This document shows positions 844 to 35,882 of a stretch of 64,000 nt of DNA, one piece after another. This DNA comes from Candidatus Levyibacteriota bacterium (lineage in GTDB: Bacteria > Patescibacteriota > Microgenomatia > Levybacterales > UBA12049), in contig DAIDHL010000002.1 of assembly GCA_027459745.1 (NCBI GenBank), positions 125,656 through 189,655 of the forward strand, written 5' to 3'. The notes below the pieces were generated by a model that was not told the origin of the DNA, did not search any database, and worked only from the letters and a program-made list of their open reading frames with translations. How positions within the stretch are numbered: the first letter of the stretch is position 1; each line of letters starts with the position of its first letter. The translations under genes were made by a program, and so were the position numbers.

Positions 844-1734
844 TTATTGACTTTTATATCTATTAGCTTGTTCCTGGACAAGTATATTCAAATGATCATG
901 TAAAGTATGGTAATTATAAGTTATACCGGTATCTAATTTTATTTCCTCAGCTGCTTGTTCTAATTTCTTTTGTACTCCATCTCCACCTGACCAAGCGCTA
1001 ATATAAGCAGTAAGAACCTTTTGATCAAGTGTTGTGAGAGATGGATCGTTACGCACATCTGTAAAAAATTTATACATAAATTTTGCTTCAAAAGGAGACC
1101 AGGTTCCCAAGCTTCTGGGTGATAAATTATCGCCTAATAGCTTATAGAACATTTCAACCGTTGGGGTTTTACACCATTCAGCTGCTATTTTTCTATAAGC
1201 GTCTGGCTTGGTACCACGTAAGCTCAGAGAAAAAGTTGCTAAATATTGCTTAACAGATGATTCAAAACTACGTTGTACATTCGTAGAAATTGTGTGTTCT
1301 CTTCCAGCATAGATAAGTTCGACTCGCATTGATCTACGGAGACGATCTATACTATCGGCATCCATGTCTATATGTCGAGCTATTTGTTGAGTAAATCCTA
1401 AAGACACAAAACGCGAGGGGATCATCGCTTGGGGTTGTCTCACGAGTAGGCCTGTGGCAGCTATATTCCAAAATAAATTATTCTTTAATCTGGATGAGGG
1501 AGTTGGCTGTTCTTTTTGTCTAGCTGTAGACATTAAACGTTTGCCAAGTAAATATCCAGTTGGTTCGGGATTATTTCTCATTAGAGCAATGGTGTCTTCA
1601 TGGATTCTCAAACCAGCCTTAGATAAAGCTTCTTGGACGGGAGATAGTGACGTACCCGGATTTCCAAGTTGGCTCCGAACAATATCACCTAAAGCTGTTC
1701 TTAAATCATTGTCTTTATAGATCATAAACGACAA
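844..1734 (-). CDS. hypothetical protein (296 aa), no recognisable family
   Basis: Long ORF in the track. No motif I can assign. Divergent from the ser operon. Confidence 0.55.
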   Translation of the reverse strand: MSFMIYKDNDLRTALGDIVRSQLGNPGTSLSPVQEALSKAGLRIHEDTIALMRNNPEPTGYLLGKRLMSTARQKEQPTPSSRLKNNLFWNIAATGLLVRQPQAMIPSRFVSLGFTQQIARHIDMDADSIDRLRRSMRVELIYAGREHTISTNVQRSFESSVKQYLATFSLSLRGTKPDAYRKIAAEWCKTPTVEMFYKLLGDNLSPRSLGTWSPFEAKFMYKFFTDVRNDPSLTTLDQKVLTAYISAWSGGDGVQKKLEQAAEEIKLDTGITYNYHTLHDHLNILVQEQANRYKSQ

Positions 1735-1780: not shown

Positions 1781-1809
1781 TTGACATAAGAGAAGATTTG
1801 ATCTAAATT
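1781..1809 (+). promoter_or_regulatory. sigma70-like promoter (TTGACA - 17 nt - TAAATT) driving a leader transcript upstream of serB
   Basis: TTGACA at 1781-1786, a 17-nt spacer, and TAAATT at 1804-1809. Confidence 0.4.
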
Positions 1810-1835
1810 ACAGTTATGCTAAGGAGTAACTTATA

Positions 1836-1919
1836 ATGAATAGTCGTGTAATTGTTACAAATAATTTTTCGCCATCCTCTTGTTCCAGTGGAATTAAGGG
1901 GAGCGTTTTTGTGGTGTAA
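1836..1919 (+). CDS. candidate 27-aa Ser-rich leader peptide (MNSRVIVTNNFSPSSCSSGIKGSVFVV)
   Basis: Consensus SD AAGGAG at 1821-1826, 9 nt before the ATG at 1836. Seven of 27 codons are Ser, using both AGY and UCN codons, clustered as SPSSCSS. Stop TAA at 1917-1919. It lies between the promoter and an intrinsic terminator that abuts the serB start. Confidence 0.4.
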   Translation: MNSRVIVTNNFSPSSCSSGIKGSVFVV

Positions 1920-1945
1920 TATAGTTTATATAGAAGACAAAAATT

Positions 1946-1968
1946 GATCCCCGCAAGGGGATTTTTTA
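1946..1968 (+). terminator. intrinsic terminator / attenuator hairpin (GATCCCC-GCAA-GGGGAT followed by TTTTTT) 12 nt upstream of the serB ATG
   Basis: Perfect 6-7 bp GC-rich stem with a GCAA loop followed by a T6 run on the + strand. There is no upstream + strand protein gene for it to terminate. Confidence 0.5.
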
Positions 1969-1980
1969 ATGGATTAAAAT

Positions 1981-2640
1981 ATGGAAAATAAATATTTAAT
2001 TATTGATTTTGATAGTACATTTGTACAAGTAGAAGCTCTCGATGAGTTGGCAAAAATTGTACTTAAAAACCATCCGAAACAAAATGAACTCGTCAAACAA
2101 ATAGAACAAATTACTAATTTAGGAATGGAAGGTAAATTATCGTTTGCGGAATCATTAAAAAGACGGTTGGATTTGTTTCAACCAAGTGAAGAGCAAATAG
2201 ATAATTTGATTGAATTATTAAATACAAAGATTAGTAAATCTATTTTAGCAAATAGAAATTTTTTTCAACAATATAAACAGCAAATTTATATAATTTCGGG
2301 TGGATTCCAGGAATATATTTACCCGGTGGTAAAAGAATCTGGGTTGGCGATGAGTCATATACTAGCCAATCAGTTCTTATTTGACCAGAATGGCAATTAT
2401 CTGAGTTATGACAAAACCAAACCTTTAAGTCAAACAGGAGGGAAAATCATAGCAGTCAAACAATTGAGATTACCTGGAGAAGTTATCGTGATTGGTGATG
2501 GATATACAGATTACGAAATAAAGCAGGCTGGACTGGCTAAGACTTTTTATGCGTTTACCGAAAATATTTCACGCGAAAAAGTGAAAAAATTAGCTGATAA
2601 AGTCATGGCATCCTTTGATGAGGTTATAAGCAATATATGA
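1981..2640 (+). CDS. serB: phosphoserine phosphatase (HAD family)
   Basis: N-terminal DxDST motif (IIDFDSTF) and a C-terminal GDGxxD (VIGDGYTD) HAD signature. Overlaps serA by ATGA. Confidence 0.75.
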   Translation: MENKYLIIDFDSTFVQVEALDELAKIVLKNHPKQNELVKQIEQITNLGMEGKLSFAESLKRRLDLFQPSEEQIDNLIELLNTKISKSILANRNFFQQYKQQIYIISGGFQEYIYPVVKESGLAMSHILANQFLFDQNGNYLSYDKTKPLSQTGGKIIAVKQLRLPGEVIVIGDGYTDYEIKQAGLAKTFYAFTENISREKVKKLADKVMASFDEVISNI

Positions 2641-3599
2641 AACAAAATAAAGTTTTATTACTAGAAAATATTCATATAGTGGCAAAAGAATTGTTTGAAA
2701 ATAATAATTTTGTGGTGGAGCATCTGAAACATGCATTATCTGAGGAAGATTTGATAAGCAAATTAGACGGTGTAAGTATTCTGGGTATTCGTTCCAAAAC
2801 CCAAATTACTTCTAGAGTTCTAAAACAAGCTAACAAGTTAAAAATGATTGGGGCATATTGTATTGGGACCAATAATATCGATTTACAAACTTGTTTAGAT
2901 AAAAAAATTAATGTGCAGAATGCACCCTTTCAAAGTACACGAAGTGTTGCCGAATTAATAATCGGCGAAATTATTATGTTAGCAAGGAGAGTATTCGATA
3001 AAAGTAATTGTTTACATCAGGGGAGTTGGCTGAAAAGTGCTAAGGATAGTTTCGAGATCAGAGGGAAGAAATTGGGGATTATTGGTTATGGTCAGATTGG
3101 CACTCAATTGGGAGTCTTGGCTGAAGCGCTTGGGATGGAAGTTTATTATTACGATATGGTGAAAAAACTTACATTTGGTAATGCAAAAGCAGTGAATTCG
3201 TTAGAAGACTTACTAAAATTAGCAGATATTATTTCCATCCATGTAGATGGACGTAAAGAAAATCATGGTTTAATTGGAGAAAAAGAATTTGCTCAAATGA
3301 AAGACGGAGTATTATTTCTCAACGCTAGCCGGGGATTTATAGTCGAGATTGAAGCATTAGCCCAAGCTATTAAAATTGGCAAAGTAAGAGGTGCAGCAGT
3401 AGATGTCTTCCCCCAAGAGCCACATGCTAACGGAGATAAGTTTATTACGCCTTTACAGAGTTTATCCAACGTTATTTTAACTCCGCATATTGGAGCTGCC
3501 ACACTGGAGGCTCAAGAGCAAATCGGTCAATTTGTGACAGAGAAGGCGATTGAATATATGAATTTAGCTAAGTTATCCGTCATTGCGAGCATCGATTAG
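2637..3599 (+). CDS. serA: D-3-phosphoglycerate dehydrogenase (D-isomer 2-hydroxyacid dehydrogenase family)
   Basis: Rossmann motif GIIGYGQIGTQLG and the catalytic region of 2-hydroxyacid dehydrogenases. Translationally coupled to serB. Confidence 0.8.
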   Translation: MKQNKVLLLENIHIVAKELFENNNFVVEHLKHALSEEDLISKLDGVSILGIRSKTQITSRVLKQANKLKMIGAYCIGTNNIDLQTCLDKKINVQNAPFQSTRSVAELIIGEIIMLARRVFDKSNCLHQGSWLKSAKDSFEIRGKKLGIIGYGQIGTQLGVLAEALGMEVYYYDMVKKLTFGNAKAVNSLEDLLKLADIISIHVDGRKENHGLIGEKEFAQMKDGVLFLNASRGFIVEIEALAQAIKIGKVRGAAVDVFPQEPHANGDKFITPLQSLSNVILTPHIGAATLEAQEQIGQFVTEKAIEYMNLAKLSVIASID

Positions 3600-3686: not shown

Positions 3687-4766
3687 ATGAAAAAAACATT
3701 TTTTACACCAGGACCGTCTCAACTTTATTCAACTGTTCCTCAGCATATGAAAACTGCACTTAAAGAGGATATTCTATCGATGACACATCGGGGTAAAAAG
3801 TTTCATGAGATATTAGAACAGTTACAAAATAACTTACGTGAGTTATTGCAAATACCAAAAGATTATCAAATATTTTTTGTGTCTTCGGGTACTGAAGCGA
3901 TGGAAGTAACGATTAGAAATTGTGTTATGCAGAACAGCTCACATCTTATTAATGGTGCCTTCTCTAAACGTTTTTGGGAAATTTCACAGCAGTTAGGTAA
4001 AAATGCTAAAGCAGAAATTATAGAAGCCAACGGCACCATTAATCCTTTAGAGCTGGAAGATAATAGTGAATTAATTTGTCTTACACATAATGAAACAAGT
4101 ACAGGGGCACAACTTCCTTTAGAATTTATTTACGATCTAAAAAAGAATAATCCTGATGTGTTGCTGGCGGTTGATACAGTCTCATCGATGCCTTATGTTG
4201 ATTTAGATTTTCGCTTAGTGGATATAGTTTTTTTCTCAGTACAAAAATGTTTTGGTTTGCCATCTGGATTGGGAGTAATAATAGTTAGCCCATCAGCCTT
4301 AGCGAAAAGCAAATATTTAGCAGAAAATAATTATGACGTGGGTGCTTCGCATAGTTTTGTTTCGTTACTAAAATCAGCAGAAAAATTTGAAACTGTAGAA
4401 ACGCCTAATGTTTTGGATTTATATTTGTTAGATAAAGTTACCCAAGATTTTCTTGATAGAGGAATTAAATTATTACGTAAAGCTACAGAAGAGAAAGCAA
4501 GAATTTTATATGATTTTTTTGCTAAGCAATCAGGTTTTAACGTTTTTATTAACCATAAAAATTACCGTTCACAAACAGTCATTGTAGTCGACGTCGAGGA
4601 TGAAAATTGGTCAGAAATAAGACAAATTGAATTAGAAAATAACTTAGTTATAGGTAGAGGATATGGCCAGTATAAAGATAAACAATTACGCATTGCCAAT
4701 TTTTTTGCTCACTCGGTTAGAGACGTAGAGAGATTGACATCTTTTTTAAGAGTTAGAAATTATTAA
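3687..4766 (+). CDS. serC: phosphoserine aminotransferase (class V aminotransferase)
   Basis: N-terminal FTPGPS motif typical of SerC. Its size and operon context with serB and serA support the call. Confidence 0.65.
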   Translation: MKKTFFTPGPSQLYSTVPQHMKTALKEDILSMTHRGKKFHEILEQLQNNLRELLQIPKDYQIFFVSSGTEAMEVTIRNCVMQNSSHLINGAFSKRFWEISQQLGKNAKAEIIEANGTINPLELEDNSELICLTHNETSTGAQLPLEFIYDLKKNNPDVLLAVDTVSSMPYVDLDFRLVDIVFFSVQKCFGLPSGLGVIIVSPSALAKSKYLAENNYDVGASHSFVSLLKSAEKFETVETPNVLDLYLLDKVTQDFLDRGIKLLRKATEEKARILYDFFAKQSGFNVFINHKNYRSQTVIVVDVEDENWSEIRQIELENNLVIGRGYGQYKDKQLRIANFFAHSVRDVERLTSFLRVRNY

Positions 4767-4803: not shown

Positions 4804-4832
4804 TTGACAATTAATATTAATGAGAATATATT
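4804..4832 (+). promoter_or_regulatory. promoter TTGACA - 17 nt - TATATT for the glutamine synthetase gene
   Basis: TTGACA at 4804-4809 and TATATT at 4827-4832. The ORF-track start at 4804 is the TTG of this -35 box, so the true start is probably the ATG at 4846. Confidence 0.4.
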
Positions 4833-4845
4833 GAATATATTCTTT

Positions 4846-6276
4846 ATGGATAGTACATCTAAGTTAAAAAACTTTTTAGAAATTCCCTACGACGAACTTG
4901 AAGAACTCAATTTAAAAGCTAAATCCAATAGTTTAGATCCGCAAAAAACCATCGCAGAGAGAAGAGCGTATTTAGAAAAAGAGAAAAGAATTAAAGCCAT
5001 TACACTTTGTTTTACAGATATTGAAGGTCGATTCCATATGCTGGATTACGATAAAAAATTCCTGCTTGCTTCTAGTGATAATTTAACTTTTGATGGATCT
5101 TCCATTCGTGGCTTCACCGTTCAGAGCGAATCAGATTTGCGTCTAAGTATTGATTGGAGCAGTTTCACTTGGTTGCCCTCAGATATTTTTGGTCCAGGTA
5201 AAGTGATTATGTTTGCCAATATCATGACACGTGATCGTAAACAATATGCTTCCGATTTTCGTGGTTTATTACAAGAATACATCCAGAAACTATTGGAGAA
5301 AGAGGATCTGACGGCCAATGTTTCGGCTGAGATAGAAGGTTTTATTGTGGAAGGAACAAATGCCGAACAAGCCTTTGAGGAAAACAGAGGTTTTAGTTTG
5401 ATATCCACCGGTGGATATTTCCATTCTTTGCCGATGGATAAACTACGTCAATTTATCGATGCCAGTGCTGAAGCACAAAGAGCCATGGGTTTTCAAAATG
5501 AAAAGGATCACCCGGAAGTAGCGCCGTCTCAATTCGAAATGAATTTTTCTTACCGTAGCTCCATTGCCGCGTGTGATCAGATTCAGTTATACAAACTAAT
5601 TTGTCGACAAATTGCCAATAAAATGGGTATGACAGCTACTTTTCTGCCGAAACCAATTATGGGAATTAATGGCAGTGGTATGCATACTAACCTATCCTTG
5701 GCCAAAGGTAAAAAGAATATTTTCTATGACAAAGCGGGCAAAGAAAATCTATCTCCTATAGCTTGGGATTTTATCTCTCGTGTGTTAAATCATGCCCCGG
5801 AGTTATGTTTGATTCTGAATTCCAGTGTGAACGCTTACCGAAGATTGGATCCCCACTTTGAAGCTCCCAATCAAATTAAAGTTTCCCCAGTAGATCGTGG
5901 ATCAATGATCAGAATTCCGGTAGGCAATGAAAGATCAGCACGCATTGAAGTACGCTCAGTAGCTCCCGATGCCAATCCTTATTTACTTGTTTATTCTTTG
6001 CTGAAAGCTGGTTTAACTGGTAAGAAATTGCAAAGAGATGCTGATAAACGTGAAAGGCTACGATTCTTGCCTGGAACAATCAATGAAGCACTGAGATTCT
6101 TCAAGGGTAGTGATTTTATAACTGAAATTTTGGGCGAAGAAAACAAAGAGAAATTCAGTCATTTTAAACAATTAGTAGCCGACCGTAGTCCTAGAGAGCT
6201 GGGAACTAAGATTAAGAATTCAGAAATTATTTTTCATCACGAAGTGACCAATCAAGCCCTCTGGAATACTTTTTAA
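4846..6276 (+). CDS. glnA: glutamine synthetase (GlnA-like)
   Basis: Beta-grasp DGSS motif (FDGSSIRGF) and catalytic NGSGMHTNLS motif. Start moved to the first ATG (MDSTSKL) downstream of the promoter. Confidence 0.8.
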   Translation: MDSTSKLKNFLEIPYDELEELNLKAKSNSLDPQKTIAERRAYLEKEKRIKAITLCFTDIEGRFHMLDYDKKFLLASSDNLTFDGSSIRGFTVQSESDLRLSIDWSSFTWLPSDIFGPGKVIMFANIMTRDRKQYASDFRGLLQEYIQKLLEKEDLTANVSAEIEGFIVEGTNAEQAFEENRGFSLISTGGYFHSLPMDKLRQFIDASAEAQRAMGFQNEKDHPEVAPSQFEMNFSYRSSIAACDQIQLYKLICRQIANKMGMTATFLPKPIMGINGSGMHTNLSLAKGKKNIFYDKAGKENLSPIAWDFISRVLNHAPELCLILNSSVNAYRRLDPHFEAPNQIKVSPVDRGSMIRIPVGNERSARIEVRSVAPDANPYLLVYSLLKAGLTGKKLQRDADKRERLRFLPGTINEALRFFKGSDFITEILGEENKEKFSHFKQLVADRSPRELGTKIKNSEIIFHHEVTNQALWNTF

Positions 6277-29553: not shown

Positions 29554-29641
29554 GGAGAGTGGGCCGGACGGTAAGGCACAGGTTTGCTAAACCTGCAGGG
29601 TCTTAAACAATCCTGAGTGGGTTCGACCCCCACACTCTCCG
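29554..29641 (+). tRNA. tRNA-Ser (anticodon GCU), class II with a long variable arm
   Basis: Acceptor GGAGAGT/ACTCTCC with discriminator G. Anticodon loop UUGCUAA. Variable arm CAGGGUCUUAAACAAUCCUGAG. T-arm GUGGG-UUCGACC-CCCAC. No encoded CCA. Confidence 0.85.
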
Positions 29642-29685
29642 CAGATATTTAATTACTTATGCAGGTTCTGTTACACTAAATATAC

Positions 29686-35453: not shown

Positions 35454-35460
35454 CGAAGAG

Positions 35461-35882
35461 TGGAGATGTCGAGCTATGAACTCGAGTCCGAAAAATGTTA
35501 ATAAAAACGTCTACAAGCGTAGTTTATCTTTGAAATGTCCTTTTATTCTTTTCCGATAAACAGGAAAATAAAAGTAAGAACTCTTTTTAACCAATAATAG
35601 GGGAATTCAATCCCTATTATCTGTTTCCCAACTGTGTTATGCCCATATCATCCCGTTGGGGAAGACAATATGAACAGGCTTCTCAAACCTTATGCAGCGA
35701 GTGCATATGCAGGAGCGAATCCTGCGTTTGAGCGACCACCGTCAGCCAACACCGAGGTGGTGAACTGGCGGATGCGTTGGCTAATGCCATCAGCATTTAT
35801 ATTTTGATTCTATTTTACGGCTGTGAATCATCGCCGGCTTGCAGTTGTTAAAGAGCACTTAACGTCGAATCAAATCATCCCC
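35461..35882 (-). ncRNA. ssrA: tmRNA (SsrA), standard one-piece, about 422 nt
   Basis: The 5' end GGGGAUGAUUUGAUUCGACG matches the tmRNA 5' consensus. The 3' end carries a T-arm UCGAG-UUCAUAG-CUCGA followed by CAUCUCC-A. The acceptor GGGGAUG/CAUCUCC contains a G3-U70 wobble (the alanine identity element). An internal ORF ends ...GCU CCU GCA UAU GCA CUC GCU GCA UAA (..APAYALAA-stop). It lies directly downstream of smpB on the same strand. Confidence 0.85.

Follow-up and report, generated by a model that had tools for sequence, protein, structure and literature searches.

A likely serine-responsive transcription attenuator with a conserved leader peptide ahead of serB-serA-serC in a Patescibacteria bacterium

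The window analysed here, a 64,000-nucleotide stretch of DNA from a bacterium of the Patescibacteria (candidate phyla radiation, CPR), carries a serB-serA-serC operon preceded by a promoter, a short open reading frame and an intrinsic terminator (Table 1). These three genes had been called in an initial annotation made without database searches, and the calls held: the operon encodes a SerB-like phosphatase, a C-terminally short SerA and a SerC-like aminotransferase. The serA start overlaps the serB stop, and in relatives SerB is fused to SerA in proteins of about 630 residues. The SerA of the window has 320 residues and covers positions 11-319 of the 410 in model NF008759, with the C-terminal part of the model missing. 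The C-terminal region of E. coli SerA carries a serine-binding regulatory domain. In the window, where this part of SerA is missing, feedback would need to operate at the level of expression.

Table 1. Features of the serB-serA-serC operon and its leader, in window coordinates
Feature	Position	Strand	Details
Sigma-70-type promoter	1781..1809	+	-35 TTGACA 1781-1786, 17-nt spacer, -10 TAAATT 1804-1809
Shine-Dalgarno AGGAG	1822..1826	+	9 nt 5' of the leader ATG (1836); read directly from the sequence
Leader ORF, 27 codons + stop	1836..1919	+	MNSRVIVTNNFSPSSCSSGIKGSVFVV; in the open reading frame list
Conserved peptide module, codons 1-13	1836..1874	+	window sequence MNSRVIVTNNFSP; based on the family codon table
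Putative regulatory Ser codon cluster	1869..1889	+	S12 TCG, (P13), S14 TCC, S15 TCT, (C16), S17 TCC, S18 AGT
Region 1, 5' strand of anti-antiterminator hairpin	1870..1886	+	codons 12-17; pairs with 1890-1905 in the minimum free energy (MFE) fold
Region 2	1890..1905	+	alternative partners: region 1, terminator 5' arm
Antiterminator	1898..1952	+	1898-1902:1948-1952 + 1905-1912:1937-1944 + hairpin 1914-1919:1926-1931
Intrinsic terminator (regions 3 + 4)	1946..1967	+	GAUCCCC-GCAA-GGGGAUU, then U-run; -11.4 kcal/mol
serB-like HAD-IB phosphatase, first operon gene	1981..2640	+	HAD-SF-IB above cutoff; TIGR00338 81.8 bits, below cutoff
serA, D-3-phosphoglycerate dehydrogenase	2637..3599	+	NF008759 460.6 bits (cutoff 404)
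serC-like class-V aminotransferase	3687..4766	+	serC models 111-119 bits, below cutoffs; Aminotran_5 match

The promoter matched 10 of 12 positions in a promoter scan. Taken alone this is not significant, as 8 kb contained 39 such sites against 30 expected, but the position of the promoter, its -35/-10 spacing and the block TTGTCCATTGACA are all kept in a related locus, L001, as is the AGGAG Shine-Dalgarno sequence. The leader ORF contains seven serines (S3, S12, S14, S15, S17, S18 and S23), and an in-frame stop also lies three codons upstream of its ATG. The promoter, the 27-codon ORF with its Shine-Dalgarno sequence and the seven clustered serine codons had all been proposed in the initial annotation and were confirmed. 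One test for an attenuator is therefore passed, as the 5' leader of the operon holds a short ORF whose start signal is credible. Start signals were also compared across the family of homologous leaders described below. Most members have TTGACA about 30-36 nt 5' of the leader ATG, and only 10 of 89 have a Shine-Dalgarno sequence. About 41 of the members without one carry a -10-like box 4-11 nt 5' of the ATG, which suggests leaderless mRNAs.

The leader RNA can adopt alternative folds. Region 1 and region 2 form a hairpin within the ORF (1870-1905; -15.3 kcal/mol, z = -2.9). The core of region 2, AAGGGGA (1896-1902), repeats the terminator 3' arm and can pair instead with the 5' arm. The terminator has a 7-bp stem with four G-C pairs (G1946-C1952 with G1957-U1963), a GCAA loop and a T-run at 1962-1967, and is identical in L001. 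It ends about 13 nt before the serB ATG, leaving no room for a separate serB promoter. A second test is satisfied by this placing of an intrinsic terminator after the leader ORF and ahead of the first structural gene; the initial annotation had put the gap to serB at 12 nt.

An antiterminator of 5 bp had also been suggested, with GGGGA at 1897-1901. The coordinates needed correction to 1898-1902, and the proposal itself held in part. The core helix in the window is indeed only 5 bp, but GGGGA:UCCCC encloses an inner helix and a small hairpin that enlarge the structure, for a total of -16.1 kcal/mol. With the ribosomal A site at any codon from 12 to 17, and the terminator 3' arm still untranscribed, the antiterminator is the MFE structure; it is lost once codon 18 occupies the A site. 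The antiterminator state has no stability advantage over the terminator state (-17.3 kcal/mol), and so must win kinetically. Against shuffles of the upstream partner, support for the pairing in the window was modest (z = -2.1, compared with a family mean of -3.8). The folding check proposed at the outset was thus met by a mutually exclusive antiterminator in the window, backed by covariation across 56 leaders.

What gives decisive support is the comparison with relatives and not the window sequence alone. L001, whose SerB is 68% identical to that of the window and whose neighbouring genes differ, has the same serB-serA-serC gene order and retains the ORF, regions 1 and 2 and the terminator, with synonymous changes in the codons for Arg4, Val5 and Pro13. 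A second locus, L016, from Roizmanbacteria, has a homologous leader with the same layout, in which region 2 (GGGGAGGA) and the terminator arm (UCCUCCCC) pair without a mismatch. A metagenome scan added about 90 non-redundant homologous leaders, found so far in Patescibacteria-type contigs. The conservation check called for in the initial annotation was therefore passed, with the small ORF, the serine cluster and the terminator kept in both relatives and in dozens of metagenome loci. The search pattern fixed Ser12-Pro13 and their spacing from the ATG, so the invariance of both across the family is partly built in.

The leader does not accompany SerB itself. The closest SerB homologues (P0003, P0007, P0008 and P0010, 53-60% identical) are stand-alone genes in other contexts and have no leader, suggesting that the leader travels with the operon and regulon and not with SerB. 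In 80 serB loci returned from GTDB genomes, the Bacteroidota loci and those of 'Gammaproteobacteria' MAGs lacked such an ORF, and L016 was the only one of five CPR loci to have it. No second copy was found in the window or in the other loci examined. A scan of viral contigs with a pattern that left Ser12-Pro13 free gave no match.

Serine codons are both enriched and placed as a codon-sensing attenuator would need them. Seven serines in 26 codons is unlikely by chance in the window leader (P about 0.01 or less). Across the family, the frequency of serine at codons 14-20 was 66, 54, 50, 43, 18, 2 and 2%, and the drop after codon 17 agrees with the folding of the window leader, in which the antiterminator forms with codons 12-17 in the A site but no longer with codon 18. 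Such enrichment could be a by-product of a pyrimidine-rich strand. We rejected this explanation on frame and codon usage: in the terminator-bearing class, serine at codons 14-17 was found in-frame at 119/224 positions, compared with 11 and 10 in the other two frames and 32 +/- 5 in composition shuffles, and AGY makes up 23% of the family's serine codons. The enrichment is highest ahead of serine biosynthesis genes, at about 50-62%, and falls to 29% ahead of VUT genes. Two further tests of an attenuator are met: the codons for the operon's own amino acid are clustered, and they are placed so that a stalled ribosome would cover region 1 and not region 2.

Pairing was tested in the 56 of 90 family members with an intrinsic terminator. 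Across the family, region 2 is G-rich, lies at nt +57 to +73 from the ATG and can also pair with codons 11-17. It copies the 3' arm of its own terminator over at least five arm sequences (GGGCGGUU, GGGAGGUU, GCGGGGU, GGCGGG and GGGGAU). With the ribosome footprint masked, 6.4 of 7.3 nt of the terminator 5' arm were paired upstream, against 3.4 in shuffles, with a mean dG of -17.5 kcal/mol against -8.1 and a mean z of -3.8 (n=56). Overall, the 5' arms also paired better with their own leaders than with leaders of another class (-10.9 against -8.0 kcal/mol; Wilcoxon p = 2e-8). Region 2 and the terminator 3' arm thus covary across the family, and the last test, mutually exclusive 1:2, 2:3 and 3:4 pairings with covariation support, is met. 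The anatomy of the attenuator, its conservation, its covariation and its codon placement are shown by these analyses.

The first 13 residues of the leader are conserved in a way that the initial annotation had missed, as it had the larger antiterminator. The family consensus is M-N-x-R-V-[DN]-V-[LY]-N-N-[YF]-S-P (MNxRVxVxNN[YF]SP), while the C-terminal half of the peptide is variable, its sequence dictated by RNA pairing. Conservation of codons 1-13 is at the level of amino acids, with synonymous variation in the codons. Arg4 is encoded by AGA (35), CGA (31), CGC (12), CGT (10) and CGG (3), and all four third bases are used at Val5, Val7, Ser12 and Pro13. At codon 4 the search pattern would also have permitted AGY, which is absent (P about 2e-8).

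This pattern bears on an alternative in which the ORF is incidental and what is conserved is RNA, as a riboswitch or as a site for protein binding. In favour of an RNA element, a conserved region followed by terminator and antiterminator alternatives is the layout of riboswitch expression platforms. Similar gene sets are found with the ZTP, THF and glycine riboswitches. However, the variation has three-base periodicity with free third positions, arginine and leucine are each drawn from both of their codon families, AGY is missing at codon 4 and the serine enrichment is frame-specific. Codons 1-11 are A/U-rich with no conserved structure in the family leaders, and no Rfam family matched the element above threshold, in the window or at 20 other leader loci. 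An RNA element with an incidental ORF is highly unlikely.

The genes downstream of the leader are not limited to serine biosynthesis, another feature not seen from the window at first. The ORF is in every case followed directly, in the same orientation, by a gene from a limited metabolic set. Besides the ser operons this set includes glyA (SHMT), MTHFR-like, FolC-like, MtrA/pterin-binding/ThyA-like and Gly_transporter genes, and VUT/RibD_C-DHFR/F420_ligase operons (transporter, DHFR-like and glutamyl-ligase genes). In about one third of the leaders the terminator hairpin is absent; these end 1-5 codons past Pro13 and have few or no extra serine codons. In some leaders of folate and one-carbon genes, Ser12 is the sole serine codon.

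Asn, Asp, Tyr and His, the amino acids of the queuosine-modified tRNAs, and the VUT/YhhQ-like transporters downstream prompted the idea that queuosine might be sensed. As the main signal it was rejected: position 11 can be either Phe or Tyr, and the operons that hold VUT genes also contain DHFR-like and F420-type glutamyl-ligase genes, not tgt or que genes.

The ORF could instead be an independent small protein with its own terminator, with serB expressed separately. Conservation of the peptide could reflect a function in trans, and leader peptides with trans roles are known, such as peTrpL (PMC7298713). Against this, the gap of about 13 nt between terminator and serB cannot hold a promoter, RNA pairing dictates the variable C-terminal half, and the ORF keeps its place and strand relative to the same few metabolic genes. 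We consider an independent small protein very unlikely.

The most likely reading is that the serB-serA-serC leader is a ribosome-mediated transcription attenuator that couples expression to serine supply, as the initial annotation had suggested, although this function is inferred from sequence alone. Transcription would start about 20 nt upstream of the leader ATG, with a ribosome translating the 27 codons as RNA polymerase advances. When seryl-tRNA is plentiful, the ribosome would reach the stop codon (1917-1919), region 1 would pair with region 2, the terminator would form and transcription would end 13 nt before serB. When seryl-tRNA is scarce, the ribosome would stall with serine codon 12, 14, 15 or 17 in the A site, covering region 1. 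The free region 2 could then pair with the terminator 5' arm, through GGGGA:UCCCC and the inner helix, blocking the terminator and allowing the operon to be transcribed. The conserved 13-residue peptide most likely would act in the ribosome tunnel, slowing or arresting the ribosome around Ser12-Pro13, and this slowing would set the sensitivity of the switch. Both the serine response and the peptide's role are inferences only; there are no transcript-end, toeprint or reporter data.

While the leader has the parts of a classical attenuator, such an attenuator does not need conserved residues 1-13. A pure hungry-codon model leaves unexplained this conservation, the folate and one-carbon contexts and the leaders without terminators. 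It is likely, though again only an inference, that serine-codon attenuation is not the whole story for this leader family.

In a rival explanation, sensing is done by the peptide, which would belong with arrest peptides such as TnaC, SpeFL and SecM. The ribosome would stall at Ser12-Pro13 on a signal other than seryl-tRNA, for example the state of the nascent N-terminus or a metabolite related to folate or one-carbon units, and the serine codons of the ser-operon leaders would be an added second input. The amino-acid conservation with free synonymous variation fits this picture, and the conservation of a leader near its stall site is expected of arrest peptides, although the stall itself has not been demonstrated. 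The use of the same module ahead of SHMT, MTHFR-like, FolC-like and other folate and one-carbon genes also fits, and the hairpin-less third of leaders suggests one sensing module with two expression platforms. However, no ligand or stall site is known, and the strong, correctly placed serine enrichment at codons 14-17 of the terminator class is as expected from plain codon sensing. All members have Ser12, though the search pattern forced this. As a stall turns the operon on, the signal would also need to report scarcity. That the peptide is the sensor seems unlikely, and codon-sensing attenuation, with the peptide as a probable modulator, remains our preferred reading.

A bolder reading is possible. 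MNxRVxVxNN[YF]SP may be a portable nascent-chain sensing module, the protein counterpart of a riboswitch aptamer. CPR bacteria might pair it with interchangeable platforms, either a terminator/antiterminator or a hairpin-free, G-poor spacer, and it is conceivable that a stall at Ser12-Pro13 controls genes for serine, folate salvage and one-carbon metabolism together. The signal might then extend beyond seryl-tRNA, perhaps to one-carbon or folate status, with the serine codons as a second, classical input.

Almost nothing is known of gene regulation in candidate-phyla-radiation bacteria, and in the literature searched we found no report of leader-peptide attenuation in them. Leader-peptide attenuation is a textbook mechanism that is not known for serine. 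The comparative support is unusually strong, with about 90 homologues and covariation over several terminator types. A peptide conserved across distant relatives and reused at folate and one-carbon genes points to a nascent-chain component absent from classical attenuators. At about 150 nt the system is small and directly testable, both for serine and one-carbon sensing in reduced-genome bacteria and as a possible new arrest peptide.

The element family appears undescribed, as we found no Rfam family or paper for it within the searches made. At E <= 10, Rfam gave only sub-threshold FtrA and Phe_leader matches in 1400-2400, and scans of the whole window and 20 other leader loci found no known family for the element, tRNA and tmRNA aside. 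Among the leader families (His, Thr, Leu, Trp and Phe) only Phe_leader appeared, at 20.5 bits against a cutoff of 55 (E = 1.2). Neither 1400-2400, scanned at E <= 10, nor the whole window, scanned at gathering score, contained a match to the T-box model or to the serC element RF00517. Literature searches on the peptide motif, on CPR leader or arrest peptides and on serine leader peptides returned nothing relevant.

Serine-specific T-box leaders occur in Firmicutes, for example at serA of Paenibacillus polymyxa (PMC8002221), and the window leader is inferred to resemble them in tying serine biosynthesis genes to tRNA-Ser charging through a terminator/antiterminator switch. A T-box, however, is a structured RNA of 200-300 nt without an ORF that binds uncharged tRNA directly, whereas the window leader is about 150 nt long and translated. 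The serC element of alpha-proteobacteria (RF00517, PMC1273637) is a cis element directly 5' of the serC-serA operon and shares with the window leader its position and a hairpin adjoining the start codon. It differs in consisting of two short stems with no ORF; it has no known ligand and is believed to mask the ribosome-binding site. In B. subtilis, sinR senses serine through TCN codons (PMC3862929), with slowing of the ribosome at serine codons reading out serine depletion, as it may also do in the window leader. The sinR codons lie inside the regulated gene and act on translation, with no leader, terminator or alternative RNA structure.

Close parallels in architecture are the enterobacterial attenuators of trp, his, leu, thr, pheA and ilv. 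These share the short translated leader with clustered codons for the pathway amino acid, the four RNA segments with exclusive 1:2, 2:3 and 3:4 helices between which ribosome position decides, and the intrinsic terminator directly 5' of the first structural gene. The window leader differs in its amino acid, for which no leader-peptide attenuator was found in the literature searched, and in its host, a Patescibacteria bacterium. In this family the first 13 residues are conserved across distant relatives, whereas the leader peptides known from different phyla do not resemble one another (PMC2965389). In its conserved start the family resembles the TnaC, SpeFL, SecM and Erm leaders, with a short peptide conserved as amino acids, ending in a conserved proline, and a stall that would control downstream termination. 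To our knowledge MNxRVxVxNN[YF]SP has no apparent sequence similarity to these peptides. Unlike them, the window leader would act through an intrinsic terminator and antiterminator and not through Rho, and carries codons for the cognate amino acid.

Every element that the initial annotation had placed upstream of serB, a promoter, an AGGAG motif, a 27-codon serine-rich ORF and a terminator, is present in the window. Taken singly, the window sequence is at most suggestive of an attenuator and not decisive, because the promoter match by itself does no better than chance (39 sites in the 8 kb scanned, 30 expected) and seven serines in 26 codons has a P of about 0.01 or less. A tiny ORF lies between terminator and serB, and a similarly placed one overlaps the serB ATG in L001, the locus with the closest SerB; these may reflect translational coupling or have no meaning. 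Neither Pfam nor NCBIfam has a match for the divergent 296-aa ORF that lies upstream of the leader.

Features of the leader, its surroundings and related loci
Feature	Locus	Position	Strand	Remarks
Promoter-like site	window	TTGACA 1781-1786, TAAATT 1804-1809	+	17-nt spacer
Shine-Dalgarno AGGAG	window	1822-1826	+	9 nt upstream of leader ATG
Leader ORF	window	1836-1919	+	27 codons, seven Ser; MNSRVIVTNNFSPSSCSSGIKGSVFVV
ORF-internal hairpin	window	1870-1886:1890-1905		minimum-energy fold; 5' strand is codons 12-17
Antiterminator helix 1	window	1898-1902:1948-1952	+	constrained fold; GGGGA:UCCCC
Antiterminator helix 2	window	1905-1912:1937-1944	+	constrained fold
Antiterminator small hairpin	window	1914-1919:1926-1931	+	constrained fold
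Terminator hairpin	window	1946-1963	+	GAUCCCC-GCAA-GGGGAUU, then U-run; ends ~13 nt before serB-like start 1981
Tiny ORF	window	1969-1977		ATG GAT TAA
Tiny ORF	L001	5990-6004		ATGGAAAGAATATGA
Divergent 296-aa ORF	window	844-1734	-
SerA	window	2637-3599		320 aa
Glutamine-synthetase-like gene	window	4804-6276		after serC
Promoter-like site	window	4804-4832		TTGACA-17-TATATT, 11/12 matches
tRNA-Ser (GCU)	window	29554-29642	+
tmRNA	window	35458-35882	-	112 bits
-10-like box and leader ATG	L016	2815-2851		no SD
Vut_1 (YhhQ-like), RibD_C/DHFR-like, F420_ligase (CofE-like), Vut_1 first	L113	6057-8007		oriented
Same order	L198	7855-9053
Same order	L206	9102-10360
Same order	L191	9480-10684
Same order	L142	532-1709

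The minimum-energy fold contains a hairpin within the ORF that the initial annotation did not describe. Its strands, regions 1 and 2, pair at -15.3 kcal/mol (z = -2.9 against shuffles), and the AAGGGGA in its 3' strand is the sequence of the terminator 3' arm. When a ribosome was modelled with its A site on codon 12, 14, 15 or 17, before transcription of the terminator 3' arm, the most favourable fold was a three-helix antiterminator of -16.1 kcal/mol. The GGGGA:UCCCC antiterminator proposed initially held as one of the three helices, its GGGGA coordinate having been off by one. Moving codon 18 into the A site hides the GGGG under the ribosome and abolishes the antiterminator; once the ribosome has reached the stop codon, the fold contains both the 1:2 hairpin and the terminator. 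As the fully transcribed terminator state reaches -17.3 kcal/mol, the antiterminator would need to win kinetically, as it does in other attenuators.

The window SerB has one 68%-identical homologue, on contig L001 (GCA_027459725.1), where the serB-serA-serC order is the same and the neighbouring genes are different. The L001 leader upstream of serB, MNSRVIVTNNFSPSSCSFLVKGIFLVI, agrees with that of the window in -35/-10 spacing, SD, region 1, region 2 and terminator; the two differ by synonymous changes in Arg4 (CGT to AGA), Val5 and Pro13 and by divergence of the hairpin loop and spacer. For the other near SerB homologues (53-60% identical) the gene stands alone, with neither serA nor serC beside it, and no leader precedes it. 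A SerB profile scan of one genome per species returned 80 loci, among which those from Bacteroidota and 'Gammaproteobacteria' MAGs have no such leader ORF. L016, a Roizmanbacteria contig, carries the leader MNSRTDVLNNYSPQSSWSIFSGEDAF and then CCUCCC-CAAAA-GGGAGG-U8 directly before serB, and its region 2 (GGGGAGGA) is a perfect complement of the terminator arm UCCUCCCC. The ribonucleotide reductase homologues of the window carry the names Patescibacteria or Levyibacteriota, so the window comes from a candidate-phyla-radiation bacterium; taxonomy was established for the window, L001 and L016 only.

Scanning metagenome contigs with a degenerate pattern from the leaders of the window, L001 and L016 (ATGAAY-N3-MGN-N12-AAYAAYTWYTCNCC) gave at least 120 loci. 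In about 90 non-redundant matches a short ORF reads M-N-x-R-V-[DN]-V-[LY]-N-N-[YF]-S-P plus a variable tail; the other ~30 are family duplicates or ORFs that depart from this form, many of which probably matched by chance. Because ATG spacing and Ser12-Pro13 were fixed in the pattern, part of their invariance is a product of the search itself. At positions free of the pattern the amino acid is kept and synonymous variation is free, with all four GTN codons in use at Val5 and Val7 and both Leu codon families at Leu8. Arg4 is AGA in 35 cases, CGN in 56 and never AGY, despite the pattern allowing AGY (P about 2e-8). At the sequence level this shows that selection on the leader start acts on the peptide and not on the RNA. 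That the element consists of RNA only, with no leader peptide, is unlikely. About 41 of 89 leaders have a -10-like box 4-11 nt before the ATG and no SD (L016, L099 and L101, for example), which suggests from sequence alone that most family members are probably leaderless mRNAs; the window and L001, each with a 5' UTR and SD, are among roughly 10 SD-bearing members.

An intrinsic terminator precedes the downstream gene in 56 members, all with region 1 at codons 11-17. When these 56 were folded under a masked ribosome footprint and before synthesis of the terminator 3' arm, 6.4 of the 7.3 nt in the terminator 5' arm, region 3, had upstream partners against 3.4 in shuffles, with a mean dG of -17.5 against -8.1 kcal/mol (mean z = -3.8; z = -2.1 for the window alone). 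The segment that serves as partner occupies a constant place, +57..+73 nt from the ATG, and is a copy of the leader's own terminator 3' arm, whatever the arm sequence (GGGCGGUU, GGGAGGUU, GCGGGGU, GGCGGG, GGCGGU or GGGGAU). Terminator arms pair at -10.9 kcal/mol with their own leader and -8.0 with other-class leaders (Wilcoxon p = 2e-8). The 2:3 helix is therefore supported by compensatory covariation, and in sequence terms the attenuator holds up as real throughout the family. An independent small gene in place of a leader peptide is unlikely.

Among these 56 leaders Ser occupies codons 14-17 in 66, 54, 50 and 43% and codons 18-20 in 18, 2 and 2%, against 5.9% in downstream proteins; the drop coincides with the point where, in the window folds, a stalled ribosome would start covering region 2. 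Density is 50-62% before Ser-biosynthesis genes and 29% before transporter operons. We rejected the possibility that the enrichment is a by-product of a pyrimidine-rich strand: the same nucleotides hold 119 Ser codons in frame against 11 and 10 in the other two frames, composition-preserving shuffles gave 32 +/- 5 (maximum 56 in 2000), and AGY makes up 23% of Ser codons.

Behind the window leader, the first gene encodes a SerB-like HAD-IB phosphatase scoring below the serB model's cutoff. Fused SerB-SerA proteins of ~630 residues are the first gene after the leader in many relatives (loci L101, L106, L107, L108, L118, L124, L161 and L170), supporting a phosphoserine phosphatase despite that score. 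The serA product, a phosphoglycerate dehydrogenase above the NCBIfam cutoff, covers no more than positions 11-319 of the 410-residue model, its C-terminal part being missing. This is the part that forms the serine-binding regulatory domain in E. coli SerA, so serine probably exerts no allosteric feedback on the window enzyme. The third gene encodes a SerC-like class-V aminotransferase. A strong promoter-like site lies inside the listed TTG-start ORF of the glutamine-synthetase-like gene, which probably starts at a later Met and has its own promoter; in L001 two opposite-strand genes separate it from serC. The tmRNA and tRNA-Ser (GCU) genes are the sole Rfam or ARAGORN matches in the window.

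The leader module precedes serB, serA, serB-serA fusions and a histidine-phosphatase-family gene, and also SHMT, MTHFR-like, FolC-like, MtrA/pterin-binding/thymidylate-synthase-like and Gly_transporter genes, a GlcD-like FAD oxidase and 19 Vut_1 transporter genes, whose operons continue with RibD_C/DHFR-like and F420-type gamma-glutamyl-ligase genes. The regulated set is thus inferred to span serine, folate salvage and one-carbon metabolism. The Vut_1 operon may serve folate-type salvage; if so, the substrate of this VUT subfamily would be other than queuosine precursors. About a third of leaders (31 with enough sequence; L088, L090, L103, L105, L116, L121, L133, L146, L172, L198, L202, L206 and others) form a second class, whose ORF stops 1-5 codons past Pro13 with few extra Ser codons. 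Position 14 is His in 19/31 and Gln in 7/31, and a U-rich, G-poor spacer (12% G) without a terminator hairpin separates the ORF from the gene. As to how this class works, termination by Rho and stabilisation of the mRNA by a stalled ribosome are no more than guesses.

Sequence evidence establishes the anatomy, conservation, covariation and codon geometry, and the best-supported reading of the window element is that it is probably a serine-responsive, ribosome-mediated attenuator, the response to seryl-tRNA being inferred. This model leaves the conserved 13-residue start unexplained, and neither the folate and one-carbon contexts nor the hairpin-free second class fits a plain attenuator. Most likely the conserved nascent chain slows or arrests the ribosome at Ser12-Pro13; it may merely tune sensitivity or may sense a second signal tied to one-carbon status. 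A less likely rival is that the peptide itself is the sensor. There is a real possibility that the module is something newer than known attenuators. We also weighed the idea that the many Asn, Asp, Tyr and His codons are read in a queuosine-dependent way, and set it aside.

Our literature searches for the leader motif, CPR leader peptides and CPR arrest peptides found nothing, and the window element matches no Rfam model of known amino-acid leaders, nor the T-box and serC element models. Where cis RNA control of serine genes is known, it acts through T-boxes (PMC8002221) or the alpha-proteobacterial serC hairpin (PMC1273637). Attenuator surveys (PMC2965389, PMC1262725) list no serine leader peptide and report that leader peptides lack similarity between phyla. 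The serine attenuator proposed here would work in the same way as the trp, his, leu, thr and phe attenuators, and the window element meets every defining feature of these that can be tested in sequence.
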